Below, one piece after another: positions 1 to 12,589 of a stretch of 12,589 nt of DNA. The stretch is from NCBI GenBank assembly GCA_965224245.1, contig CBDCYW010000002.1:1-12589 (forward strand), written 5' to 3'. Every line of letters begins with the position of its first letter. Position 1 is the stretch's first letter. The notes under the pieces were generated by a model that ran no database searches, had not been told where the DNA came from, and saw only the letters and a program-made list of their open reading frames with translations. A program made the translations under genes and the position numbers. This stretch comes from Candidatus Eiseniibacteriota bacterium. GTDB taxonomy: Bacteria > Eisenbacteria > RBG-16-71-46 > CAZAMP01.

Positions 1-334
1 GTCGACCCGCGGGCGTATATCGCGTTGGGGCGCAACGTTCTCCATCGATTTGCAGGCGTCGAATTCTCAGCATTTTCACGCGCCAGGGAGCCCGGCGACG
101 CGGTTCGCAGGGCGTCCGCCGTGGGCGCCAATTCTCAGCATCTGCGAACCGGCAGCCTCCTTGTTTACAGCGCCGCTGTAACCCGTTGGTATGCCTCAGG
201 CCGGACTGCGGCTTTCCACGACTCGCACGCCAACGCGACGACCACCTAAACTCATCACCAGCACAGACCGGACGTTATGGACGGGTCCGCAGACGGAGCC
301 CGATGTCGTCAACTGCGAGCACTGGGAGTACCTT

Positions 335-2515
335 ATGTCAAACCAGCGTTTACGAGAACTACTGTTCGCCGATCTGGCGAACGTGGTTGCCGCCCTAGCC
401 TTGCTCACCGTGCCGTTAGGGACTCCGGCTCAAGCGTCCCAGGACTACGGTGTCGGGGAAGTCATCGTCGAATTCCAGGCCGGACGTATCGAGTTTCCTG
501 ACGGACTTGAACGCTGCGGGTTCGGTGACGTGACGGTGCATGATCCTGTTCTGAGGACACTTCTCAACTCGTGGGGGGTTCGGGCCTTCCAAGTGATCTG
601 CCCGGAATGGCGAGGAATCGACGAATCCGACATGTTCGATATTCAAGGTCGACCAATACTCGAGCCCCTCAAGGACTTCGAGAATGTCTATCTTCTCTAC
701 TTCGACGCTTCTCACACCGTAGACGAGGTAGTCGCCGATCTACGAACCCGGGACGACTATGTGATCTTCGCGCATCCGAACTACCGCGCTCGCGATACTG
801 GGTGCCCGACAATCCCGGTCTCGATTGGGGAAACACTGTACCATCAAACGGCAACACACACTGGATCCTGGGGCATGAGCAACCCAGGCCTGTTCAGCGA
901 GATTGTGGGCGCCGATTCGGTTCAAGCGCTCTTGGACACGGATATCAATCTGCAAGAGGCATGGAGTATCTACAACACAGCCACCAAGAAGGTCGCGGTA
1001 CTGGATCGTGGCATTGACATGTGTCATGAGGACCTTCCTGTGGACGCCGTTCTCTCGAAGTGCTTCAGCGGCAACTCCTGCTCGACCGACGAGACGGACC
1101 CTCAACGAGCCCATGGAACAGCAGTAGCGGGCATCATCGCTGCGATTGCAAACAATGGGGTGGGTGTTGCTGGCGTCCTCGGTCACCCGTCATCAGACGA
1201 TGACCTCATTGTCTCGCTTCAGCTCAGGTCGGCGGACGGTTCAGGACAGACGGCTCATGCGGCAACCGCGATCAGCTACGCTGTTGGCACGGGTGTGATC
1301 CCTGTAACGAACATCAGCATGACTTTCGCCGGGGTCCACGTTGACGCACTCAAGCTAGCAATGAAAAACGCGTTTCTCGCTGGAATGACTTTCGCGGTTT
1401 CCGGGGGGAACAGTTCGAGCGATGTGTCTCCGCAAGAGTGGGGGCGGTTTGGCATCGGAACGACCGGGATCAATATTGATGGGAGTGATCCAGGCTGGCA
1501 CGAGGGGCCCTGGATCGATGTGACTGCTCCGGGGCCCGCGGGAGCACCGTTGGGCGTTCAGCAGGGCGTGTATACCACTGCATGGGTCTCGTTCAACCAA
1601 GACTGCAAGCGCTATGGGTGGTTTCACGCCACCTCGTCCGCAGCTCCACACGTCGCCGGAATGGCGGCGCTCATACTGTCCCACGTTCCGATTGCAACGA
1701 ACGAGGATCTCTTGGAGGTGATTACTCGAACTGCCAGGGACCTCGGGCCAACGGGATATGACGAAACCTGGGGTCACGGCCTAGCTCGACTCGACAACGC
1801 TCTCTGCTTTGTGACGGAGCGAACGCTGGTCCATGGCGACGTGTCTGGGGCATACGACCAGTTGACGTTCGTTGAAGATCGCACCCAAACGTTTCTCAAC
1901 CTGAAGGAGAGTTGGGGGGGAGAAGGCGACTACTGGGTGGATGTGTATAAGGCGACAAAGTCAGTTGGCTTTCCTAGCAACGTTGAGGATTGCCCAATCA
2001 ATACTACCCAGGTTTGGGCGCGAGGTCGTCAATGTTCGGGCTGGCGAAACGAGTCTACGATCGACGTGGCTCTCGACACGACGTGGGGGGGGGTTGTGAA
2101 TGAAACGATCACTCCCTTTGGCTGCGACATTTCGACATACTTCTATGAGGTGTTCGCGGACGAGAACGCATCCAGTTCCCTGGGGTGGTTCCCCTACGAT
2201 CCCGATGATGCGTCGTCTCCTCCCCTGAGTTGGGGCTACACGTACCTCGTGCTGCCTTCCTGTCCGCAACGGATCGGAGGGAACGCGATCGAGAACCTTC
2301 AGGCTCCCACTGTCACAACGACCGTGCAAGTCTATGACGTAGCTGGCCGCCGAGTCCGCGAGTGGGACATGGAGGGCCCAACGTCCGCAAGTTCCATCGA
2401 GTGGGATGGGCGGCTAGACTCCGGTCGCCTGGCACCGACTGGTGTATACTTCGTGCGAGCGCGGAACGCCGTAGGTGCAGCAGCAATGAGTCAGCGCGTG
2501 CTCGTGGTTCGATGA
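335..2515 (+). CDS. Secreted S8 (subtilisin-like) serine peptidase with C-terminal FlgD-Ig-like domain
   Basis: Triad motifs VAVLDRGID (Asp), HGTAVAGIIAA (His) and ATSSAAPHVAG (Ser), with oxyanion Asn in VSGGNS. C-terminus VQVYDVAGRRVR...WDGRLDSGRLAPTGVYFVR is FlgD-Ig-like. ATG 335 follows GGGAG (324-328) and gives a signal peptide (...ALALLTVPLGTPAQA); the ORF extends up to 191. Confidence 0.9.
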   Translation: MSNQRLRELLFADLANVVAALALLTVPLGTPAQASQDYGVGEVIVEFQAGRIEFPDGLERCGFGDVTVHDPVLRTLLNSWGVRAFQVICPEWRGIDESDMFDIQGRPILEPLKDFENVYLLYFDASHTVDEVVADLRTRDDYVIFAHPNYRARDTGCPTIPVSIGETLYHQTATHTGSWGMSNPGLFSEIVGADSVQALLDTDINLQEAWSIYNTATKKVAVLDRGIDMCHEDLPVDAVLSKCFSGNSCSTDETDPQRAHGTAVAGIIAAIANNGVGVAGVLGHPSSDDDLIVSLQLRSADGSGQTAHAATAISYAVGTGVIPVTNISMTFAGVHVDALKLAMKNAFLAGMTFAVSGGNSSSDVSPQEWGRFGIGTTGINIDGSDPGWHEGPWIDVTAPGPAGAPLGVQQGVYTTAWVSFNQDCKRYGWFHATSSAAPHVAGMAALILSHVPIATNEDLLEVITRTARDLGPTGYDETWGHGLARLDNALCFVTERTLVHGDVSGAYDQLTFVEDRTQTFLNLKESWGGEGDYWVDVYKATKSVGFPSNVEDCPINTTQVWARGRQCSGWRNESTIDVALDTTWGGVVNETITPFGCDISTYFYEVFADENASSSLGWFPYDPDDASSPPLSWGYTYLVLPSCPQRIGGNAIENLQAPTVTTTVQVYDVAGRRVREWDMEGPTSASSIEWDGRLDSGRLAPTGVYFVRARNAVGAAAMSQRVLVVR

Positions 2516-4209
2516 TCCAGGACTTCACGAGGCCGTCGGGGATGCTAAGGATGTGTCAACTGAGACGTATGGTCTTCTGCTTGGGCTGCCTCTGTCCTGT
2601 CTCGACTGGGATCGCAGGTGTGTCGGACACCACGTGGTTTGGTGGATCGGATCCCAACACGGGCATTGCCGTACAAGGTGGCATCTGGGACTTCGAGGAC
2701 TGCACGACACAGGGCTGGTCCAGCGTCGATCGAAGCGACGAGGGGCTCTTCGTGACGCACGTCACACCCGACTCGAACGCCGTGCATGGAGATGGTGACG
2801 TGACCGCCATCAATTCCTCTGGATCAATCTGGTTCGGTGCCCACGCGGACCGCGCAGAGGAAGAGTGTTGGCCAGGCGGTCAGGGCTACGACAACGCCTG
2901 GGTACAGGTCGCGCGCAAGACGTTCTCATACGGCGGCAGCGGCGACGTCACGATCGAGTTCGACTACTTCGCCGACAGCTCGGCGGGGTTTGACTTCACG
3001 TACGTCTACATCGCGACTGACGACGTAACCATCGGCCCACTCAACCCGGGGGCGTGGGGCCCGGGGTATTCAGGTTCGGTTGGGTCGCCGCAGAGCCCAG
3101 CGCACGCTGTACTGGTGGCAAGCGAAGTTGACCTGGCGACAGTCGTGGACTCGTTCGACGTCGTGTTTCAGTTCGAGGCAAACGAGTCTGAGTCGGATGG
3201 CTGGGACGCGCTTGGGACCACGATAGACACGATTGGCGGGTTCGGTCTCGACAACGTAGGGGTCGTCGGCAACGCGCTGGACGACTTCAGCGACTTCGAA
3301 CCCGGCGCGATTGGAGGCGCTGAGCGCGATGGCTGGCGCCTCTATGAGGCACCCCCCATTGGCAGTTTCGGAGACGTCGCTCCGCTGGAGGACGTCGACA
3401 CGAACCAGGAGGTGCCGGAGAGCTGCCCGGTCGTGGGCTGCGTGCTCCTCGCTTCGGATGCGCTCGGGGGTGGGGACCCCCATCCGTACTTGCAGCACGA
3501 GACTCTTCGGTCGAATGCCGTCCCTGCTGTGGAGATGATGGTCGACGCGGTCGTGCTCCAGTTCGATGCGTGGCTGAACTGGCCCGACGGGATGGGTATC
3601 TTCTTCTATCTCGGCGTCGAGTACTACCCGTGGACTTGCCCGGAGAGCGGCGTCGTTGGCTGGTCCCCGATACCGACTCTGAGTGTCTCAGGCGTGGCTG
3701 CGCCGGCGATCTGCGCCAGCGATGCAGTCGTGGATGTGACCGGAGACCTGCCGCCGATTGCGCTCGTGGACTCGCTCCGGATCGGGATCATCATGCAGAG
3801 GTCGTGTGATCCGTTTTCGCCAAGTTGTGCTCGGGACGCATTCAGTAACGCCCCGTCGCCATTCTTCGACAATCTTCGCGTTGGGTTCGTCCGATCGAGC
3901 GTTGGCGTTGTGGACCATTCATGGCCAGGGCCGCGTCCATACGAAGTAGTCCCGTCGCACAATCCGATCAATACCGGGGTACTGTGCACGTTCTTCCTGC
4001 CGAACGCTGAGTCGGTGCAATTGTCAGTGTATGATGTCTCGGGAAGACTGGTGCGCCTCTTGCGCGACGAGGATCTTCCGAGGGGTGAACACTCCACTGG
4101 CTGGAACGCAACCGATAGCGCGGAACGCCGGGTGGCTCCGGGAATGTACTTCCTTCGTCTGAAGACGCCCCACGCGTCGCACACTTCGCGCGTGATTGTG
4201 GCCCGTTGA
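2512..4209 (+). CDS. Secreted acidic, Cys-containing protein with C-terminal FlgD-Ig-like domain
   Basis: Long ORF. ATG 2512 overlaps the upstream stop (ATGA); alternative ATGs at 2542 and 2551. Hydrophobic N-terminus. C-terminus HNPIN...VQLSVYDVSGRLVRLL...WNATDSAERRVAPGMYFLRL. Confidence 0.8.
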   Translation: MIQDFTRPSGMLRMCQLRRMVFCLGCLCPVSTGIAGVSDTTWFGGSDPNTGIAVQGGIWDFEDCTTQGWSSVDRSDEGLFVTHVTPDSNAVHGDGDVTAINSSGSIWFGAHADRAEEECWPGGQGYDNAWVQVARKTFSYGGSGDVTIEFDYFADSSAGFDFTYVYIATDDVTIGPLNPGAWGPGYSGSVGSPQSPAHAVLVASEVDLATVVDSFDVVFQFEANESESDGWDALGTTIDTIGGFGLDNVGVVGNALDDFSDFEPGAIGGAERDGWRLYEAPPIGSFGDVAPLEDVDTNQEVPESCPVVGCVLLASDALGGGDPHPYLQHETLRSNAVPAVEMMVDAVVLQFDAWLNWPDGMGIFFYLGVEYYPWTCPESGVVGWSPIPTLSVSGVAAPAICASDAVVDVTGDLPPIALVDSLRIGIIMQRSCDPFSPSCARDAFSNAPSPFFDNLRVGFVRSSVGVVDHSWPGPRPYEVVPSHNPINTGVLCTFFLPNAESVQLSVYDVSGRLVRLLRDEDLPRGEHSTGWNATDSAERRVAPGMYFLRLKTPHASHTSRVIVAR

Positions 4210-4222
4210 TTCTGATCGAACG

Positions 4223-4248
4223 ACAAAACCCGGCGCAACCGCACCGGG
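4223..4248 (-). terminator. Intrinsic terminator-like hairpin downstream of the distal gene X remnant
   Basis: Minus strand CCCGGTGC-GGTT-GCGCCGGG followed by TTTTGT. The 22-mer at 4227-4248 is identical to 6937-6958 downstream of intact gene X. Confidence 0.65.
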
Positions 4249-4274
4249 CAAGCAGAACCGTCTGGGGCTGACGG

Positions 4275-4413
4275 CTAGCTCTTGAGCACCGCCCTCAACC
4301 GGTTCTGCAACGACCCCTGCTTGTTCCCGACCACGTCCCTCGGCCCGATGTGCTTCTCGCAGTACTGCTCGGCCGACTTCCCGATCGAGACCTTCAGCTT
4401 CTCCGTGGGGATC
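4275..4413 (-). pseudogene. Distal 3'-end remnant of gene X (last 45 codons)
   Basis: Translates IPTEKLKVSIGKSAEQYCEKHIGPRDVVGNKQGSLQNRLRAVLKS*, homologous to the gene X C-terminus. About 121/139 nt identical to 5411-5549, with 58 bp perfect at 4331-4388. No homologous 5' part. Confidence 0.85.
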
Positions 4414-4465
4414 GTGCGACTGCAGCAGAGCGTATCCGCGGAGTACTTGAGACGCTCCGGCTGCA

Positions 4466-5302
4466 CTACGTCAACGCCCCGAACGCGTTGGGCCAGGTGC
4501 TTCGTACGAACGCCAGTCCGAGCTTGGTGGCGTGAAGGCCGTGCCAATCCGGGTTCGTGCCGTCGTCAGCGACGCGATAGTCAAGTTCGAGCAGACCACG
4601 AGTCAGCAGCTCACGGACGGCGCCGTCAAAGACCAGCGGCCTCGTGTCTGCGTTCTTACCTAGGTTCTCGTCGTGAGCGATCAGGCCCTCATGGAGTGAG
4701 AACTTCGGATTGCTCATCCTCAAACGGCCATACAGGTTCATGAGGTAGACGGCCCTAGAACTTAGAGAACGCCGGATATTCGCCAGCCGCTCACCGATCG
4801 CTCCTTCGAACTTTGTGGCACCCTCAAGCAGCGCTTGGGAAACGCGCTTGATCGGATCACCCTGATCGTAGGCGACGACTCGGTTGTCTTTGATGTCAAA
4901 GTGCAAGTCACGCAGGTCACCTTGCGCGATGAGGATGATCTGGCTGAGAGGCTTGAGGGACAGGGCAACACCGGTCTCTACCAGTACTCCATGATTGGCC
5001 ATTGTGAGGTCTGCGACGAAAAAGTGGTCGGCGAGTATGTGCTCTACGATCTCCTCGGTGATTTCGGAGGCGTTCGGCGCCAAGCGATCGGCTCGAACTG
5101 GTGGGCATGCGAACGGGCGAGCCGGCCCCTGCTCGTTGGCGCGCTTCACCGCCTCACAGATGATTGTGTCGAACACATCGGTTGCTCGATAGCTGAACTG
5201 ATCCCGAAATGGCATCGCTACGAACGTGGTGTAGCGATCGGCAACAATCTGGCCGGCCAAGGCGTCTTGCCCTGTTTCTCGCCAAATGCGATCCGCGTTC
5301 AT
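4466..5302 (-). CDS. Nucleoside 2-deoxyribosyltransferase-like (NDT/TIR-like fold) protein with probable C-terminal winged helix
   Basis: Motifs FVAMPF, VRADR, EIVEHI..DHFFVADLTMANHGVLVETGVALSLKP and LHFDI..NRVVAY. C-terminus VRELLTRGLLEL...LHATKLGLAFV is wHTH-like. ATG 5302 has GGGAG upstream; alternative starts at 5335 and 5344. Confidence 0.75.
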   Translation of the reverse strand: MNADRIWRETGQDALAGQIVADRYTTFVAMPFRDQFSYRATDVFDTIICEAVKRANEQGPARPFACPPVRADRLAPNASEITEEIVEHILADHFFVADLTMANHGVLVETGVALSLKPLSQIILIAQGDLRDLHFDIKDNRVVAYDQGDPIKRVSQALLEGATKFEGAIGERLANIRRSLSSRAVYLMNLYGRLRMSNPKFSLHEGLIAHDENLGKNADTRPLVFDGAVRELLTRGLLELDYRVADDGTNPDWHGLHATKLGLAFVRSTWPNAFGALT

Positions 5303-5563
5303 TCTGATGCTCCCGGGTTCTGATCGCGTGATCATAGCCAGCATCGAGCGAGATGCTACAAATAAGCGCGGAGCTTCGGACCAGGGCAGGAGGGAACCTG
5401 GGCAGGGCTGCTAGCTCTTCAGCGCCGCCCGCAGCCGATTCGAGAGGCTGCCCTGCTTGTTCCCGGCCACGTCCCTCGGCCCGATGTGCTTCTCGCAGTA
5501 CTGCTCGGCCGACTTCCCGATCGACACCTTGAGCTTCTCCATCGGGATCACCTCCTCGGTTTC

Positions 5564-5595
5564 CGGCCGTTATGCCGAGCTCGGCATAACGGCCG
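5564..5595. repeat. 32-bp perfect palindrome CGGCCG-TTATGCCGAG-CTCGGCATAA-CGGCCG
   Basis: Read directly. Built from two copies of the adjacent element's terminal decamer between CGGCCG hexamers. Confidence 0.95.
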
Positions 5596-5878
5596 TTATG
5601 CCGAGTGCCGGATTATGCCGAGCCGGCGCCAAGAGCCTGCGGTCACTGTGGCCTGGAGTCGATCCTACTCGGCATAATCGGAGGCACTTCAGTGCTCCAA
5701 AGCGCGGGATAGCCGCAATGAAGCCCAACCTGGCGCACCGTCCTCGTCGTCCGGCTCTGATCCGGGTCGAGGAAGAGGTCCGTTTTATGCCGAGCGTCAA
5801 GCGTTCTGAACGCGTGCAAGTCTGTGCTGCGTCTCACGGCCTGCTATGTGGCTCGGCATAATCCGGCACTCGGCATAA
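5596..5878. mobile_element. 283-bp non-autonomous miniature element with RIT-like terminal inverted repeats
   Basis: Perfect 29-bp inverted repeats TTATGCCGAGTGCCGGATTATGCCGAGCC (5596-5624 and 5850-5878). Inner inverted cores at 5668-5677 and 5785-5794. Flanked by CGGCCG (5590-5595, 5879-5884). It splits a gene X remnant and encodes no recombinase. Confidence 0.8.
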
Positions 5879-6205
5879 CGGCCGGCCCTTGACGGTGACC
5901 CTGAGCCCCTTGGCGACCTTGACGACGTCGAAGCTGACGCGCTCGGAGACGTTGGTGGCGCGGCCGCCAGTGAATTCGCGACCGCGTTGCCAGATAGTAG
6001 CTTTCGAGGCCCGTGCTAGACTCATCGAATGTGCGAAGTCGTCCATCTCCAGCTCTTGCTGGCGACGCTCTCGGCGTGGATCGGACGTTGTCGGGCGGGC
6101 GGTCATCGCCCCCGATCGCATTCCTGCTGAGCCCTACGTCGTCAGTGCCGCTGACGGTTGCCTGTCGCGAGGGACGCCGTGGACTCCTGAGGTACGGGGA
6201 GCGTG

Positions 6206-6829
6206 ATGCGTACAACGATGCTGCTGGTGCTCTCCTGTGCCGCCGTCGTCACGTCGGGCCGTGCCGATGGACCGCCACAGATGATCGCGGCTGCGGACCT
6301 CGGTTTCTGCCAGTCGCCGCCGCACGAGGACCGGGACTGCGATGACATACTCTCAGAACTCAGTGAGTTCGGCGGTCTCATCGACGTCCTCGTGCAAGGT
6401 CTTCCGAGGATCAAAGAAGCGCGGTTCGGCGTGTTCATCGACGGTGACGACACGGAGTTCGGCTGGACCCAGTACGGCGGGTTCACCGTCTCCGTGGTGG
6501 ACACACTCCCGAGCGTCCAGTACGCGATCATTGCAACAGCCATCGACGGCTGCCACAAACTCAGCGATGGGATGCACCATCTGCTGTGCTTCTCGAACGC
6601 CTTTGTTCGCGAGGAAACGACGTTCGCGGTCGTTCCCGACCCCAGGATTGGCCGCGCACAAGTGACCACCTGCGACGACATTGTGATCACGATCCCGGAG
6701 GAGTACCTCGGCATCGTCGGGATCGGTGGCCCACCAGGCTACAACCCCTGCGAAGAGGGCACGGTGGACGTGCCAGATACCCCCCTCCAACGATCATCGT
6801 GGACGACGGTCAAGTCCCTTTACCGGTAG
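6206..6829 (+). CDS. Secreted hypothetical protein with C-terminal SWxxVKSLYR motif
   Basis: GGGGAG RBS precedes GTG 6203/ATG 6206. Signal-peptide-like MRTTMLLVLSCAAVVTSGRA. Ends TPLQRSSWTTVKSLYR. Confidence 0.8.
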   Translation: MRTTMLLVLSCAAVVTSGRADGPPQMIAAADLGFCQSPPHEDRDCDDILSELSEFGGLIDVLVQGLPRIKEARFGVFIDGDDTEFGWTQYGGFTVSVVDTLPSVQYAIIATAIDGCHKLSDGMHHLLCFSNAFVREETTFAVVPDPRIGRAQVTTCDDIVITIPEEYLGIVGIGGPPGYNPCEEGTVDVPDTPLQRSSWTTVKSLYR

Positions 6830-6932
6830 CCGTGTTGAACAACAGCGGGGCCGCACGTGGTGTAGGCTGTCCATGCCGAACACCGACTGCGCGCGCGGAC
6901 GCGGCCTGGATGGTTGGCGACACGGGACAAGG

Positions 6933-6959
6933 AGAGAACCCGGCGCAACCGCACCGGGT
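6933..6959 (-). terminator. Terminator-like hairpin downstream of gene X
   Basis: Same hairpin as 4229-4248, followed on the minus strand by TTCTCT; about 30 bp after the gene X stop. Confidence 0.55.
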
Positions 6960-6987
6960 GAAGTGGAAGCGTCTGTGGCCGGCGCCG

Positions 6988-7594
6988 CTAGCCTCTCAGC
7001 ACCGCCCGCAACCGGTTCGCCAACGACCCTGACTTGTTCCCGACGACCTCACGCGGCCCCAGGTGCCGATCGGTGTAGTCCAGCGCCGCCTTGTTGATCG
7101 AGACCTTGATGAGCTCGGGGTTCAGCACCTCCTCGGTGTCGGGGCGTCCCTTGATCGCGACCTTCACGCTCTTGCCGCTCTTCTCGACGAGGAACGTCAC
7201 GCGCTCGGCGACGTTGGTGGCGCGGCCGCCGGTGAACTCGCAGGGGACGCCGGCCTTCTTGCAGGCGTCGCGGTAGGGGCCGAGGACGTCGCGGAACTGG
7301 GCCTTGGCGTCGGCGATGAGGGTGTTGGCCTCGCCGCGGAGCGTGGCGGCCTCGGCCTGCATCTCCCGGACGTTCCGTTCGGCGTCGACGACGGCGGTGC
7401 GGAGCGCGTCGAGGTTGGGGGCGGCCGTGTCGCCCGTCGTCGGGGGCGGTGTCGGCGTTTCGGCGGCCGGGGCGGCCGTCGGGGGCCTTCGTCGGCCGAG
7501 CCTTTGCGGTGCGGCCCGATTTGGCGCCGGTGCCGCCCTTGGTCGCCTTCGCCGCCGTCGCCTTCCTCGGAGCCTTCTTCTTCGTCGTCGCCAT
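6988..7594 (-). CDS. 'Gene X': uncharacterised ~201-aa protein (Lys/Ala-rich N-tail, Pro/Ala/Thr linker, coiled coil, conserved C-terminal domain); apparent frameshift near 7481-7485
   Basis: Strong AGGAGG RBS (7600-7605) before ATG 7594, giving MATTKKKAPRKATAAKATK. Removing one base from the G5 run joins this to PTAAPAAETPTPPP...NLDALRTAVVDAERNVREMQAEAATL... and ORF 6988..7362. Very high GC3; two paralogous remnants conserve the protein sequence. Confidence 0.8.
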
Positions 7595-7647
7595 GTCGTC
7601 CTCCTGGGCCGATGTCGCAGGCGCGCCCGATTGCGCGCCAGTGCGAC

Positions 7648-7678
7648 ACACGACCGCTCTGGCCTCTGGTTAAGTCAA
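7648..7678 (-). promoter_or_regulatory. Promoter-like motif TTGACT-N13-GAGCGGTCGTGT facing gene X
   Basis: -35-like TTGACT at 7678-7673; mirrored by the same motif on the + strand at 7713-7743. Confidence 0.55.
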
Positions 7679-7712
7679 GCAATGGCAACGGGTTAATTCG
7701 TGGCTTTCTCGG

Positions 7713-7743
7713 TTGACTGGAGCGTCGCGGCGAGCGGTGATGT
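7713..7743 (+). promoter_or_regulatory. Promoter-like motif TTGACT-N13-GAGCGGTGATGT facing the recombinase
   Basis: Same hexamer, same 13-nt spacing and 10/12 identical second box as the minus-strand motif. Confidence 0.55.
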
Positions 7744-7921
7744 AGCGGAAAACAGAACGCCCCCGGGCGCGGCCGCGTGAGCTGCACCGGGACGGAGTTG
7801 CTCCCCGAAAGACGGAGGTGGGAGCGGCGGTAACAAGGATGAGCGCGCCGGCTCCCCGGGAACGAAGGACACAATTATCCGAAGCGAGTCCGTTAGGCTC
7901 GACGCAAGAGGGAGGTGAGGA

Positions 7922-8512
7922 TTGCCGTACCGCGCCCCCGAGACCATGACCACCGCCGAGCAGCGACGCCTCCTCGACGTCAGCGCCGAGAGCCCGAGGC
8001 CGCGCGATCACGTGATGATCTCGCTCGCGCTCGGCACCGGGCTTCGACTCGGTGAGCTGCTCGCGCTCGACGTCGGTGACGTGAGCCCCGATGGCGTCCA
8101 CGTGCGCACGCGCGTGAAGCTGCGCGTGGAGACGACCAAGGGCGCGCGCAAGGGCGAGGTGTTTCTGCCGGATCGGGTCGTCGAGAAGCTGACGCGGTTC
8201 CTGGCGTGGAAGCGCATGATGGGGGAGTCGCTCGATGGCGACGCGCCGTTGTTTGTGTCGTCATGGGGGCGGCGGTTGTCGCCGAGGCGGACGCAGATGA
8301 TGTTTCAAACGTGGCAGCGGAGAGCAGGCTTCGATCGACTGTACAACTGGCACTGCACCAGGCACTCGGCCATTTCCAACGTCTACCGAGCGTCTCGGGA
8401 CCTCTTTCTCGCCCAGAGGTTCGCTCGCCACGCGTCACCCCTCACCACCATCATCTACACCCATGTATCAGATGAGGAGATGGCGGAGAGGGTACGAGCG
8501 TTACCGTGCTAG
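7922..8512 (+). CDS. Short tyrosine recombinase/integrase (catalytic domain only, 196 aa)
   Basis: RDHVMISLALGTGLRLGEL (Arg), TKG (Lys), HCTRH (HxxR), FARHASPLTTIIYTH (His, Tyr). GGAGGTGA RBS before TTG 7922. Confidence 0.93.
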   Translation: MPYRAPETMTTAEQRRLLDVSAESPRPRDHVMISLALGTGLRLGELLALDVGDVSPDGVHVRTRVKLRVETTKGARKGEVFLPDRVVEKLTRFLAWKRMMGESLDGDAPLFVSSWGRRLSPRRTQMMFQTWQRRAGFDRLYNWHCTRHSAISNVYRASRDLFLAQRFARHASPLTTIIYTHVSDEEMAERVRALPC

Positions 8513-8620
8513 TCTTGTTCGGTCCTTTACGCAAGGGCGGTCGGACACGCACGTGAGCCGGCCCCCACGAAGGTGGGGAGAGAGGCTAACGGGTACCCCT
8601 CTTTCGTGTCTGGTGATGAA

Positions 8621-9792
8621 ATGGCAAACAGCGTGACGGTGGCGAGCCGCGTTGGTCTTCTGGTCGCACTGGCGGCGATCGGCATCGGGTGTGCTTCGAC
8701 CGCGCACGTTCGAGCCCGATCAGGCATGGTAGCGATCTGCGACCCAGTTGTCGCGATCCACCCAGACTCGACGATCGGACGGTGGCGAGATGGCCCATTT
8801 GAGGATTGGAAGAAGATCGGTCCGCGGGGTCTCGCCATGGACGTCGTGGGGGTGGATGAGGTTCTTGCGGATGAACTGCGATCACTCGGATCGCAGGCGA
8901 TCGAGCTGGGAAGGACTGCGGCTGAGACGCAGTGCGACTTCATTGTGGTGCCCGCGATCGTGGCTGCGAAGCTCCGAAACGTGGGTACGGACTACCTTCG
9001 TCGTGCGTCAGTCACGGCGACAGTTCGGTGGATCGGCATCGAGAACCCCTCAGGTCGAGGTCGCTTTGAGATCGAGAACGTCTGCGCGGCGGAGGGTGGG
9101 TCCGCCCGGAAGGCATGGATGGAAGCACTCCGCGTCGGTCTACGATCTATGCTCGCGGATGGGAGGATCGGCGAGCACTGGTTGTCCACCGCGCCGACCG
9201 CGCAGGATGAGGCGGCGATCGAGGCGGCGGATCAACCGGCGGGGGATTGGCTGCTGGAAGCCCGGAGGTCCGTGTTCACGCTCCTCAACTACCGCGACCA
9301 TGGCCACGGAAGTGGCTTTGCGTTTGCCAACGGCGGCTGGGGGTTCAGCAACGTACACGTCTTCGGCAGGTCGTCCGCCCTGTTTGCTACGGTAGATGGA
9401 ACCGATCAACGCGCCGCGCTCGCGTGGCGCCGAAACCGCGAACGGGATGTCGTTCTTTTCAGGTTCTCAGGCGACCCGGTCGCGAGCTTGCCGGTAGCGA
9501 GCACTCCGCCTGAGATCGGCGCCGATGTGTTTGTAATCGGCAGTCCGCTGGAGTGGAACGCGGCCGGTAGTGTCGCGAAGGGCGTCGTCAGCAACCGTGC
9601 GATGCGCGAGGGGCAAGAGTTCATGCAAACGGACGCGCCAGTCAATCCGGAAACAGCGGGGGCCCCGTCCTCAACGAACATGGATCGGTTGTGGGCGTCA
9701 TCGTGGAAAAAGTCGTTGGGCTTGCCGTCGAAGGAATTGGTTACGCAATCCCGATTGAGAACGCGATGGAGTCAGTGGACTGGCCTAACTGA
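8621..9792 (+). CDS. Lipoprotein with C-terminal trypsin-like (S1C/HtrA-type) protease domain; frameshifted at ~9647-9650
   Basis: Signal plus lipobox-like VGLLVALAAIGIGC. Motifs GSGFAF, SNVHV (His) and RDVVLF (Asp). One added base restores [45 protein letters not shown]...WPN* (stop 9790-9792). Confidence 0.85.
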
Positions 9793-9830
9793 CTCACTCT
9801 GTTGAGGCTGCGAGTCCGGAAGAAACGCCG

Positions 9831-10984
9831 TCAGCGCTCACCCCTGATCCGATAGTTCGCCTCCAGCCCATCCCAGAGCCGCTTGAACGCCATTCCGAAC
9901 GCCCGCTTATCCTCCCAGCCCCGGAAATCGACGATGTTGTACGTCCGCTTCATGTGTGCGAGATCGGCTTTGCCGATGCCGAGCCTCGACGGCGGGTTCT
10001 CCCACGTGTTGTCGATGCTAATGGGGCAGAGGACCGGCCTGCCGAGTTCACGCTCCTTCTTCTCCGCGGCCTCGACCTCCAAGCCCACCCACTTCGACTC
10101 CAGGGACTCTCTCGACAGGACGAGGATGGTCACGTCGTTCAGACGGATCGCGCGAGTGAGTGAGGCTCGATCTCCCCGGCGTCCATGTCCTTGATGTCGC
10201 GCCAGTGGCGGAAGCCCTTCGAGTCGAACTCGGTCGAGAGACGGTCAACGAAGCGGGTGTTGGCGTCGCAACGGGCGTAAGAGATGAAGGCGCCGCCGAT
10301 CAGGAGCGGGCCGGCGGAGACGAGCTCGTCGATCTTGTAGATGATGCGATGGATGGCGTCTTCGTTGCCGACGTTCTCGGGGCGTCGGAGGTCATACGTG
10401 AGGATGGCGAGGTCGGAGAGGCCGCAGGTTCGCAGAAACTCCATCGGCAGCGACGGATTGATCTCCAGTGTGCCGACATCAATCGCGCATGGGCCGGAGT
10501 TGACAATACGATCCAGACCGGTTGCTCCTGTCAGGCTGGTTCGGAAGAATCCAGCACCTTGGAGCATGGCGCGGTCGGCAGCCGCCCGGTCTAGTACCGC
10601 GAGTCGGAGGTCACAGAACTCGGCGCGTGCGCCGTTGAGCTGGGCAGCGGTTAGGTTCGCCTGACTGAGATCAGTTCCACGCAGCCTGCTGGTCCGGGTG
10701 CGTGGAGTGGCGAGTCTTCGCGGTGATGAGGGACTGAAAGGTCCCAAATCGACTCCTTGCAGGTTCGCAGCACGGAGGTCGATGAAGCTCAGGTTCGCGC
10801 CACGCAGATCCGCACCACCCAGGTCCGCGCCACGTAGGTCAATCGGGATTCGCCATCGCATGTTCGTGTGGGCAGCCGGAACAACACCCTGGCTCTGTTG
10901 GGAATCGTGCCACTCATTCCACTCCTCCACCCGTTCCGCCTTCAGCGTCTCAATCGCCCACTCCCGCGACCCGATCTCTGCCAT
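9831..10984 (-). CDS. Pentapeptide-repeat + TIR (TIR_2-like) domain protein; frameshifted at ~10160
   Basis: Repeats DLRGADLGGADLRGANLSFIDLRAANLQGVDL. TIR start AFISYAR...FVDRL...GFRHWRDIKDMDAG. One added base gives EIEPxLTRAIRLNDVTILVLSRESLESKWVGLEVEAAEKKE...VLCPISID, about 384 aa in total. Confidence 0.85.
10943..10984 (-). repeat. Copy A of a 42-bp direct repeat (start of the pentapeptide-TIR gene)
   Basis: 38/42 identical to 12005-12046, with 27 bp perfect; encodes MAEIGSREWAIETL. Confidence 0.9.
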
Positions 10985-11922
10985 CACTCGTCCTCGCCCG
11001 GCACGATGAGCCGATTGTTCCTAATGTACAGCTTACCGTTGGGGTTGGGCTGGTACTCGTTGATCCACTCGAGGATGGCCTCGTAGTCCTTGAGTTCGAA
11101 GTCGTAGCGGGATGCCTTGAAGTCCTTGACGCCCTTCGTGAAATGCGACGTTGTCGCGAGCATGGCATTCGCCGCCCGTACTTCACCCTTTACCGCGTAC
11201 AGCGACCGCGCGATGTCGATGCCGACTTTGCGGTCGAGCCGGTACTTTTTGCACTCGATGATCCACGAGGTACGCACGCCAGCCCCGTCCTTTGAGATCG
11301 CGAGGATATCGTACCCGCCGTCTCGGGTTGGCGGCGTGAGCTGCACGGACCAGCCGTAGCCTGCGAGGATCTCAGCGATCAACTCCTCAAACTGGTGGGG
11401 TCGTATCACGTCAAGCTTGTGCGGGTGTTGCTGGAGGTGGGCAATGAGTCGCGCAGCAACCAGGTCGACGACTTCCACCAGTTCACCGGGGGGATCGGCG
11501 GGGCCGAACAGTCGGTGAGGCGGTGCAACGGAGTCTTGAGCCTCCAGAATGCCACCATAGACGTTGTCGTATTCGTCGCTCGCATACCGAGGCAGTGCCG
11601 TCGCTGTCGAGAGTTCGGGCAGGCGCAACGGAGGATCGTAGGTTTCCTTACACGCGACCCGCATGCGAACCCAGTAGTATGTGTTGTATGGTGGAGTCTG
11701 CGCTTCTTCGTCGTCGCCGATCACGATGCGCTCATCCTGCGTCACGGCAGAAACTAGGCCCCACCCAGCCAGAAGAGTGGGATCTGAGGAATCGACAACA
11801 AGCAGCGAGTCACCCGGCGAGATTTGGAGCGGAGCCCAAACCGAGTAGCTAAGCTGGAGCTCTCCTTCGACCTTCCCGTTGGACGTGTCTCGAAGTGCGA
11901 TCCAGCTAGACATGTTGTTCAT
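10984..11922 (-). CDS. Mrr-family (PD-(D/E)xK) restriction endonuclease with N-terminal EVE/PUA-like domain
   Basis: FEELIAEILAGYGWSVQLTPPTRDGGYDILA...IIECKKY...VG....RSLY...AMLATTSHFT is Mrr_cat-like. N-terminus ISPGDSLLVV...LAGWGLVS...YWVRMRV...DPPLRLPEL resembles EVE. Start 11922 or 11913; stop overlaps the TIR ATG (TGATG). Confidence 0.82.
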   Translation of the reverse strand: MNNMSSWIALRDTSNGKVEGELQLSYSVWAPLQISPGDSLLVVDSSDPTLLAGWGLVSAVTQDERIVIGDDEEAQTPPYNTYYWVRMRVACKETYDPPLRLPELSTATALPRYASDEYDNVYGGILEAQDSVAPPHRLFGPADPPGELVEVVDLVAARLIAHLQQHPHKLDVIRPHQFEELIAEILAGYGWSVQLTPPTRDGGYDILAISKDGAGVRTSWIIECKKYRLDRKVGIDIARSLYAVKGEVRAANAMLATTSHFTKGVKDFKASRYDFELKDYEAILEWINEYQPNPNGKLYIRNNRLIVPGEDE

Positions 11923-12004
11923 CCCCGTTTCCAATCGCGACCATTGGGATGTGCCAACAAGTGACGTGTGATCGAAGGAAGCCCAGTGGCACCTGATGAG
12001 TTGC

Positions 12005-12046
12005 CAGCATCTCAATCGCCCACTCCCGCGACCCGACTTCCGCCAT
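12005..12046 (-). repeat. Copy B: orphan 5' start of the pentapeptide-TIR gene
   Basis: MAEVGSREWAIEML with a GAGAGG RBS upstream; runs into unrelated sequence and stops at 11906 (46 aa). Confidence 0.85.
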
Positions 12047-12165
12047 GGCGCCCTCTCATAGAGTTGGTGAATGGCGGGAGTATAGACAGGAGAGTCAGTC
12101 CGGCGAAATCTCAATGCGGCAGTCGTTCGCGGACAAGTGGCCGATGGCAGGGGAGGTAGGGCTCC

Positions 12166-12471: not shown

Positions 12472-12588
12472 CTACGAGGGCAGCACGCGCCGTTGATCGC
12501 TCCACCTGGCGGTCCGCAACGCCTCCCTCAACCGCCGCTCCCCAACCACGATCGTCCCATCGAGCAGCCTCACCTGGATATCCGGTGC
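12472..12588 (-). CDS. Possible 3' end of a gene entering from beyond the window
   Basis: Open frame APDIQVRLLDGTIVVGERRLREALRTARWSDQRRVLPS* with high GC3. Confidence 0.4.
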   Translation of the reverse strand, partial: APDIQVRLLDGTIVVGERRLREALRTARWSDQRRVLPS

Positions 12589-12589
12589 C

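Follow-up and report, generated by a model that had tools for sequence, protein, structure and literature searches.

The contig CBDCYW010000002.1 of a Candidatus Eiseniibacteriota genome (assembly GCA_965224245.1) was analysed over its whole length of 12,589 nucleotides, here called the window. It carries an array of cargo genes behind a protein-coding gene, termed X, which lies divergently beside a small tyrosine recombinase. The cargo genes are separated by remnants of X, that is, partial copies that keep its 3' end. The array is best read as the result of repeated recombination between related elements, the remnants being former heads (X, sometimes with the recombinase) that were truncated and eroded; we give this reading roughly even chances. 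One member of a prophage-like family of integrative elements contributes the window, which is its accessory-gene end. X, beside which the small recombinase stands in this lineage, is the final conserved gene of the backbone, and a cargo hotspot follows it.

The array had been described by the original prediction as X, cargo 1, a remnant, cargo 2, a remnant and cargo 3, and this order and its coordinates held when checked with tblastn and a repeat search. Its parts are given below in order from the recombinase and X outward. Behind X come a hairpin, cargo 1, a copy of a dispersed repeat, remnant 1 (split), cargo 2, remnant 2 with its hairpin, and cargo 3, which consists of two secreted-protein genes.

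7922–8512, plus strand: tyrosine recombinase of 196 amino acids, catalytic domain only, divergent from X (Pfam Phage_integrase)
6988–7593, minus strand: gene X, allele type A, with a Lys-rich disordered tail, a long helix and a small C-terminal domain; frameshift at 7478
6929–6958, minus strand: terminator-type hairpin behind the resident X (repeat D5; alignment of downstream regions)
6203–6829, plus strand: cargo 1, 208 amino acids with a signal-peptide-like start, on the strand opposite to X (list of open reading frames)
5979–6097, plus strand: truncated dispersed repeat, directly adjoining remnant 1 at its 5' edge (blastn)
5880–5979, minus strand: 5' part of X remnant 1, 33 codons, starting at about X residue 118 (tblastn, E 8e-8; repeat D2, 77% to 7142–7241)
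5570–5879, no strand assigned: 310-bp insert dividing remnant 1 (inverted repeat I1)
5411–5569, minus strand: 3' part of X remnant 1, 50 codons and stop, allele type B (tblastn, E 7e-15)
4466–5344, minus strand: cargo 2, a 292-amino-acid protein (single copy in the genome by blastn)
4275–4413, minus strand: X remnant 2, the last 45 codons and stop, allele type B (tblastn, E 6e-12)
4228–4249, minus strand: terminator hairpin behind remnant 2 (terminator-like site; copy of the hairpin behind X)
2362–4209, plus strand: cargo 3b, a protein with a FlgD immunoglobulin (Ig)-like, type IX secretion-type tail (Pfam FlgD_ig, 1e-6; common to contig C11)
191–2515, plus strand: cargo 3a, a secreted S8 subtilase with a FlgD Ig-like C-terminal domain (Pfam Peptidase_S8, 6e-25; FlgD_ig, 3e-7)

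The remnant pieces were located by tblastn at 5977–5879, 5569–5417 and 4403–4281. All lie on the minus strand and extend to the X stop position, and the repeat search returned the same families (D1–D3), so the shared strand and stop position that had been claimed were borne out. The 5' breakpoints, 5979 and 4413, were also correct. Remnant 1 had been described as one piece of 83 codons; the total stands, but it is divided into 33 and 50 codons around the 310-bp insert. Remnants in this genome begin at X residues ~112, 118, 125, 154 and ~163, and starts vary likewise in the arrays of a second genome described below, in agreement with the earlier argument against a fixed att-type edge. These ragged 5' ends, together with one remnant that was cut at two points, are the reason why the remnants are read as eroded former heads. 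A common 5' edge of remnant 1 and the first remnant on contig C11 was considered and ruled out, as the two lie ~6 residues apart (118 against 112).

The C-terminal domain of X exists in two types in this genome. The resident gene is type A and both window remnants are type B. Over 34 aligned codons the two remnants differ by 6.5 synonymous and 6.5 non-synonymous changes, and the per-site ratio of non-synonymous to synonymous differences (pN/pS) is 0.30. The remnants thus differ largely synonymously, as had been stated, when counted per site, but not by the number of changes. Remnant 2 is identical to an intact allele on contig C18 over 34 aligned codons and has four synonymous changes relative to the C23b allele. 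Given this identity and the low pN/pS, the remnants look like pieces of working type B alleles and not of the resident copy, which upholds the original view of them. The full-length X genes at C22 and C23a are A/B chimeras that switch type inside the PYRDAC...GGRATNV stretch, the most conserved of the gene. Recombination within X is thus evident, and the different tail types behind which one cargo family (fam15) stands on C11 and C23 likewise point to it.

The hairpin behind remnant 2 is a copy of that behind X (repeat D5, 4219–4248 against 6929–6958, 90% over 30 nt). It has 8-bp arms and a 4-nt loop, with the look of a plain terminator, and is kept behind 9 of the 14 X tails of the genome; conservation stops ~12 nt past it. 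Alignment of the downstream regions showed no terminator hairpin behind remnant 1. Promoter-like sites were not found between 4100 and 8000 of the window, where only terminators were detected, and neither the window nor the array of the second genome had a match in Rfam.

As the original proposal would require, tandem remnants recur in this genome, with two on contig C11 and one on C23, and also in a second genome, G011. On C11 a full X is followed by same-strand remnants of 87 and 74 codons (tblastn). On C23 two complete recombinase–X heads stand 11.9 kb apart, with a small remnant further out; these tandem heads show an earlier stage of array growth. The block 532–4413 of the window (cargo 3, hairpin and remnant 2) is 98.6% identical to C11:41912–45793 over 3882 nt. 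Between this block and X the two contigs have nothing in common, and their heads are 90.6% (X) and 85% (recombinase) alike. Hence the two contigs have an old distal part in common, while renewal of the heads and of the proximal part took place independently. Remnant 2, inherited with its downstream cargo on both contigs, has 45 codons in the window and 74 on C11, so the two lines started from a longer ancestral copy and each truncated it independently. Its passage together with the downstream cargo is what would be expected of a former head.

Growth was originally proposed to be newest-proximal, with an incoming X 3' end and its cargo displacing the old 3' end and the old cargo outward. Proximal growth is supported by the window and C11, a single comparison. 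Movement of the old 3' end alone is not: because the heads are less alike than the distal cargo, and because of the tandem heads on C23, the whole old head appears often to move outward and to be cut down later. Remnants were also said to shorten with distance; this is so in the window, where 45 codons follow 83, and on C11, where 74 follow 87, but the second genome does not show it.

The window is an entire contig bounded by repeats, and the word depth of its specific parts in one public run (X1) was 2–3, against 11 for the C11 form of the shared block. Both observations would be expected if the repeats arose by chimeric joining of strain variants of one locus, an assembly artefact. The public runs are low-depth and available as contigs only, so that they cannot show rare forms, and they may derive from the assembly's source sample. 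Their short-read contigs covered 4359–5024, 5126–5496, 5495–5593 and 5566–5805 with no differences, and thereby span the junctions of remnant 2 with cargo 2, of cargo 2 with remnant 1 and of remnant 1 with the insert. These junctions are therefore not a long-read chimera. The same architecture is moreover present on other contigs and in another genome, and an artefact is considered very improbable. Two joints seen in the runs, 4413>5879 and 5564>5880, were examined as possible excisions and rejected; they are the C11 allele and a type B full-length allele, respectively.

The recombinase matched Pfam Phage_integrase at 2e-22 over profile positions 2–171 of 172. Its scores against the integron-integrase models were 48.8 bits for TIGR02249 (cut-off 265) and 23.8 for NF011946 (cut-off 435), and all its NCBIfam matches were far under their cut-offs. 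Eight full-length copies of 85–99% identity, plus fragments, were found in the genome, with X beside each. Beyond the recombinase lies a variable block and then a conserved module, 80–92% alike across many small contigs and C1:6103282–6119970. The module on C1 encodes a large serine recombinase, a sigma-like protein, AAA_24, ERCC4, Prim-Pol and D5_N proteins, a D12 methylase, a ParB_N protein and a terminase-like piece. AAA_24 proteins presumably include Sak4-type phage recombinases. A region of ~140 kb on C1 is rich in element repeats, and many related element fragments are present. The pair of X and recombinase belongs to this repeated prophage-like element and is not a chromosomal capture platform.

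A survey of 61 genomes of the class found X in three, counting this one. G011, from another family of the class, has X proteins 44–49% identical to that of the window, with 19 matches, of which five are full-length and the rest are same-strand C-terminal pieces. A protein search showed up to four remnants behind a single X, and a motif scan at least ten junction modules; on contig C12 of that genome at least ten junctions lie behind X within 11.7 kb. Each junction module consists of a variable X tail, the stop, a terminator hairpin (7-bp stem with a bulge), a sigma-70-type promoter (TTGACA-17-TATGCT) and a ~100-nt leader with a sharp end, ...GTAGTT, directly ahead of the ribosome-binding site of each cargo gene. 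The remnants in modules of this type have ~55, 54, 52, 47, 42, 36, 35, 35, 34, 34, 33, 32, 30, 26, 22, 20 and 14 codons, and three junctions keep the terminator only. Cargo genes in G011 are all on the X strand, and cassettes measure 0.6–3 kb. A homologue of the recombinase (286 amino acids, 36% identity) is divergent and ~6.7 kb upstream at two of the three heads that could be judged; the third has no recombinase within 12.6 kb. Two metagenome contigs with G011-like alleles (L125 and L129) also hold a remnant and are too short to show a recombinase. At L052:7617–18816 and other G011 loci the terminator, promoter and leader module occurs at least 17 times, in short and long leader forms, and ends in a small hairpin; the leader may be a regulatory one common to all cassettes.

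With recombination between related elements as the driving process, each event would place a new head and its cargo next to the backbone, and the previous X, cut somewhere in its body, would be left in front of the previous cargo. The cut copies would keep the X tail and terminator, spared by selection or chance, and in G011 also the promoter and leader for the next cargo; further deletions and insertions would then have shortened them. The joins could form by homologous recombination within the conserved X stretches or the terminator, together with illegitimate joins, perhaps with help from the element's own Sak4-type AAA_24 ATPase and ERCC4 nuclease. The tyrosine recombinase would not be required for capture.

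Several observations weigh against this account. The distal edges of the junctions are sharp: in this genome cargo-specific sequence begins within ~4 nt of one point, ~12 nt past the hairpin, in seven contexts, and all 17 complete G011-type modules (G011 and L125) have the terminal ...GTAGTT in common. Edges like these would not result from illegitimate joins alone and call for either a site-specific step or a boundary that is old and shared. Remnant lengths in G011 cluster at 30–36 codons (8 of 20). Arrays were found only where a related tyrosine recombinase is linked to X (the two kin genomes), besides L125 and L129; this coincidence fits a role for the recombinase, although the two genomes, being kin, are no independent cases. 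No recombination intermediate was present among the contigs of the low-depth runs, which cannot show rare forms. Finally, some of the eight element copies may be alleles of co-assembled strains, in view of the word depth of 2–3 against 11.

The sharp distal edges are what would be expected if the tyrosine recombinase joined a site in the junction module to the same site on excised circular cassettes, as in an integron. The site would be the hairpin behind X in this genome and the end of the leader in G011, and the X tail would ride along in the cassette. Newcomers would be inserted immediately beside X. The uniform strand of the G011 cassettes and their arrays of at least ten agree with this, as does the linkage of homologous recombinases to eight of eight heads here and to two of three in G011. 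The fam15 cargo (92.8% alike), moreover, is preceded by an X tail of type A on C11 and by one of type B on C23, and homology begins exactly at the hairpin. However, the junctions share no core site of two inverted arms around a 6–8-nt spacer, the recombinase scores far below the integron-integrase models, and remnant 2 was inherited with its downstream and not its upstream cargo, the opposite of what such capture predicts. Cargo strands are mixed in the window and elsewhere in this genome, no cassette was found at two places in G011, and in 92 of the 97 other loci (below) X stands without a recombinase of this kind. No circular or excised form was seen in the low-depth reads, where such forms could be missed. 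Integron-like capture is accordingly regarded as possible but doubtful. The wider proposal that X, the junction module and the small recombinase form a phage-borne cassette-capture platform, an integron analogue with its site in the terminator or leader behind X that stockpiles defence and surface genes and in one lineage delivers each cassette with its own promoter, is more speculative still.

The tandem heads on C23, the many element fragments, the repeat-rich region of C1 and the truncated dispersed repeat at one remnant edge would also suit the decay of whole elements that had stacked in tandem through the serine or tyrosine recombinase, so that only the X tail and a few genes survive. Accretion followed by decay is a known route, described for tycheposons (10.1101/2020.12.28.424599). 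No backbone genes other than X, or fragments of them, lie between the remnants in the window, on C11 or in G011, however, and the remnants have no constant att-like extent. The G011 cassettes, each of 0.6–3 kb with a promoter and leader, could hardly have come from ten separate rounds of random decay in 17-kb elements. Tandem decay is thus judged unlikely.

The distribution of X was followed in 97 further loci from species-representative genomes (Planctomycetota, Acidobacteria, Desulfomonile, Verrucomicrobiae, Kuenenia and Gemmatimonadales), viral contigs and metagenomes. X was usually single in these loci. A full X was present in 94, of which 39 had at least 3 kb of downstream sequence. None of the 39 contained a remnant, and two (L147 and L150) contained a second full X. 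Recombinase-like matches were obtained in 5 of the 97 loci, all weak and none a divergent neighbour; the other 92 had none. X had been called the partner gene of the recombinase; this does not hold in general, as the divergent adjacent pair is present at 0 of 97 loci, and the link of X to the tyrosine recombinase is specific to this lineage. A Kuenenia metagenome-assembled genome (MAG) has a serine recombinase, 49% identical to that of the element, 1.5 kb downstream of X. In ten loci examined with Pfam, X stands beside baseplate or portal, capsid and tail genes, and is followed downstream by type III restriction-like, SNF2/DUF1156/DUF499 or Druantia genes. From these phage and defence neighbours X is taken to be a conserved phage-element gene bordering a cargo and defence hotspot.

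Two of these loci have unusual arrangements. At L147:201–5846 two full X genes in tandem are followed by three consecutive tyrosine-recombinase-like genes (24–26% to the query). At L071:8440–9456, in a Planctomycetota MAG, a C-terminal remnant of X is fused in frame to the end of a gene with an HSDR_N domain. The fusion gene sits between phage tail genes on a contig without a full X, and looks like a unit of cargo plus X tail that moved elsewhere in a phage.

The frame of X gave a tblastn match at 7467–6991 (E 6e-102, minus strand). X had been called intact, but three-frame translations, intact paralogs and nucleotide alignment showed that the resident copy is frameshifted as assembled. One extra base relative to the C1 and C11 alleles lies at 7478 in the Lys-rich N-terminal region, and because of it the start (ATG at 7593, with the Lys-rich tail) is out of frame with the body. 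The resident X is either a pseudogene or the result of an assembly error; position 7478 is poorly covered in the public reads, which do not tell an error from a real mutation. The structure model of X (predicted local distance difference test score 70) is disordered over residues 1–54, with a helix at 60–113 and then three strands plus helices. X had no match in Pfam, NCBIfam or PADLOC and no usable match in a protein atlas. The best E value against PDB sequence profiles was only 0.13, and a Foldseek search of the model against PDB and viral models gave nothing at E <= 0.001. Among 5.8 billion proteins 34 relatives were found at E <= 0.001, none of them named or with a Pfam family of its own; one carries Pfam domains that belong to an adjacent cargo gene. 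The GC content at third codon positions is 0.95 in X, 0.84 in the recombinase and 0.65–0.78 in the left-hand cargo genes (191–6829).

At two heads (C1:6103273–6103884 and C22:18–647) X is followed, with no terminator between, by a conserved gene of 204–209 amino acids. Its start overlaps the X stop region and it belongs to no known family; the arrangement is an operon-like alternative ending of the backbone.

The insert in remnant 1 (5570–5879) has 35-nt perfect inverted ends (5590–5624 and 5850–5884) and is absent from related X alleles. It contains one perfect 10-6-10 palindrome, the only copy in the genome, whose 6-nt centre CGGCCG is also found at both insert–X junctions and in uninterrupted X alleles. 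The motif CGGCATAA occurs eight times in the window against 0.13 expected, all within the insert, and 18 times genome-wide. It was tried as a general recombinase-binding site, being also present in the G011 leader hairpin, and was dropped because the other X loci of this genome lack CGGCATAA, which is confined to the insert (8 of 18 genome copies). By blastn the insert itself is single-copy in this genome, which ruled out a multi-copy miniature inverted-repeat transposable element. The insert resembles a small element placed by a reaction of the tyrosine-recombinase or transposase type.

The dispersed repeat at 5979–6097 has ten other blastn matches on C1. Seven other copies stay alike for ~20 bases further, where the window turns to X sequence, and the 5' edge of remnant 1 is thus a secondary deletion joint between the truncated repeat and X and not a cargo edge. 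The longest copy contains a 170-amino-acid open reading frame that begins in the repeat and has no Pfam or NCBIfam match. An insertion sequence was considered for the repeat, whose peptide seemed reminiscent of transposase N-termini, but this label is unproven.

Cargo 1 is unique in the genome and had no match in Pfam, NCBIfam or PADLOC. Nor had cargo 2, which had been called nucleoside deoxyribosyltransferase-like (NDT-like); that name was not sustained by these searches. A language-model comparison with the atlas gave a weak lead (rows of PF05014 or PF10137, 0.89) to deoxyribosyltransferases or TIR-like effectors, and the atlas neighbours of cargo 2 are hypothetical proteins. In cargo 3b a match to Por_Secre_tail (0.002) was below the cut-off.

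On the other side of the recombinase the window continues as follows.

8573–12114, no strand assigned: second variable block, between the recombinase and the serine-recombinase module (Pfam and PADLOC)

The block encodes a trypsin-like protease, a pentapeptide-repeat–TIR gene in two open reading frames and an Mrr-type nuclease, and its place is taken by other genes in other copies of the element. The pentapeptide-repeat–TIR gene (9831–10987) is split into 10139–10987 and 9831–10133, each with part of the TIR domain. Together these genes form a block of defence-like cargo. A repeat of 42–70 nt that includes a start codon and the first 11–14 codons (MAE.GSREWA..) is found at 10943–10984, 12005–12046 and C23:16272–16341; it stands at the head of two different cargo frames in the window and, on C23, of a third gene. 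The 5'-end repeat beyond the recombinase may mirror the punctuation by X tails.

The 12.6-kb window is the whole contig, with repeats at both ends. These (1–285 and 12477–12589) are also present at C1, C11, C23, C18 and C9, and the left one precedes secreted-protein genes at three loci. The assembly probably broke at the window ends on account of these terminal repeats.

Arrays of accessory and defence genes are usually explained by integrons or by tRNA-targeting integrases. Here a rare phage gene, X, marks a hotspot that has in two genomes grown to arrays, of up to at least ten cassettes. If recombination between co-resident related elements suffices, prophage families would have a simple and general means of stockpiling cargo; should the linked recombinase be responsible, a new capture system is at hand. 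The asymmetry between ragged and sharp sides of the junctions offers a handle for telling recombination from recombinase capture, and the promoter and leader module of G011 is a marker for finding such arrays in metagenomes.

Full-text searches for arrays of this kind in prophage hotspots, with partial copies of a flanking gene as punctuation, or for integron-like arrays in prophages gave nothing that fits by title or abstract, although a description may be in print. The growth mode had been thought to lack a prior description. This holds in part: proximal accretion with partial target copies is already described for the tycheposon islands of Prochlorococcus (Hackl et al., 10.1101/2020.12.28.424599), in which growth takes place next to a target gene, the elements are set apart by partial copies of it, and the newest element is the proximal one. 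The tycheposon target is however a tRNA gene, with att copies of fixed extent and an integrase in each element, whereas here a mobile element supplies the target, a protein gene, whose partial copies are ragged at the 5' end, and no integrase is present in the cassettes. Of the features of such accretion, the present arrays show a variable proximal and a shared distal end (in the single comparison of the window with C11), but not a constant extent of the repeats.

Accretion at a protein gene is also on record. In work on fda and ICESt in Streptococcus thermophilus, integrative conjugative, integrative mobilizable and cis-mobilizable elements (ICEs, IMEs and CIMEs) reportedly accrete in tandem at the 3' end of a protein gene. 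Such elements are likewise stacked there with direct repeats of the 3' end between them. Their repeats are short, constant att sites produced by a dedicated integrase, whereas the X repeats extend over 0 to ~122 codons and no pair of integrase and site was found.

Integrons likewise have a tyrosine recombinase heading a same-strand array of cassettes of one or two genes, many of them defence-like, with conserved junctions and plausible newest-proximal growth. Unlike in integrons, the recombinase is not IntI (196 amino acids, catalytic domain only), and the junction hairpins, short terminator-like stems, are probably not attC sites. A TTGACA-17-TATGCT promoter at each of the 17 G011-type modules stands in place of a common promoter Pc, and a conserved protein gene lies between recombinase and array.

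In phage morons and the defence hotspots of prophages and satellites such as P2/P4, defence-like cargo likewise occupies one set position among conserved phage genes, and the units there have a promoter and terminator of their own. Hyper-variability hotspots in phage genomes are the subject of a preprint. Known phage hotspots usually hold one alternative cargo per genome. The present loci share with them a prophage-like backbone, a fixed place beside X and a sharp distal edge; by sequence pattern the G011 units may also have their own promoter and terminator.

The orphan modules of rearrangement hotspot (Rhs) and contact-dependent inhibition (CDI) loci are likewise tandem same-strand 3' fragments of an upstream gene, each followed by other genes. 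Those fragments are swappable variable toxin tips with immunity genes, whereas the tails here are the conserved part of X and the cargo is unrelated; Pfam, NCBIfam and PADLOC detected no toxin family in X or the remnants. Unlike the segments of a shufflon, the remnants lie on the strand of their own array's X, and the repeat search of the window found no inverted repeats linking them. From the tycheposon islands and the tandem accretion of ICEs and CIMEs the arrays described here differ in having a protein gene of a mobile element as the target, copies of no fixed extent, no integrase in the cassettes and, in one lineage, a junction that is a full expression module.

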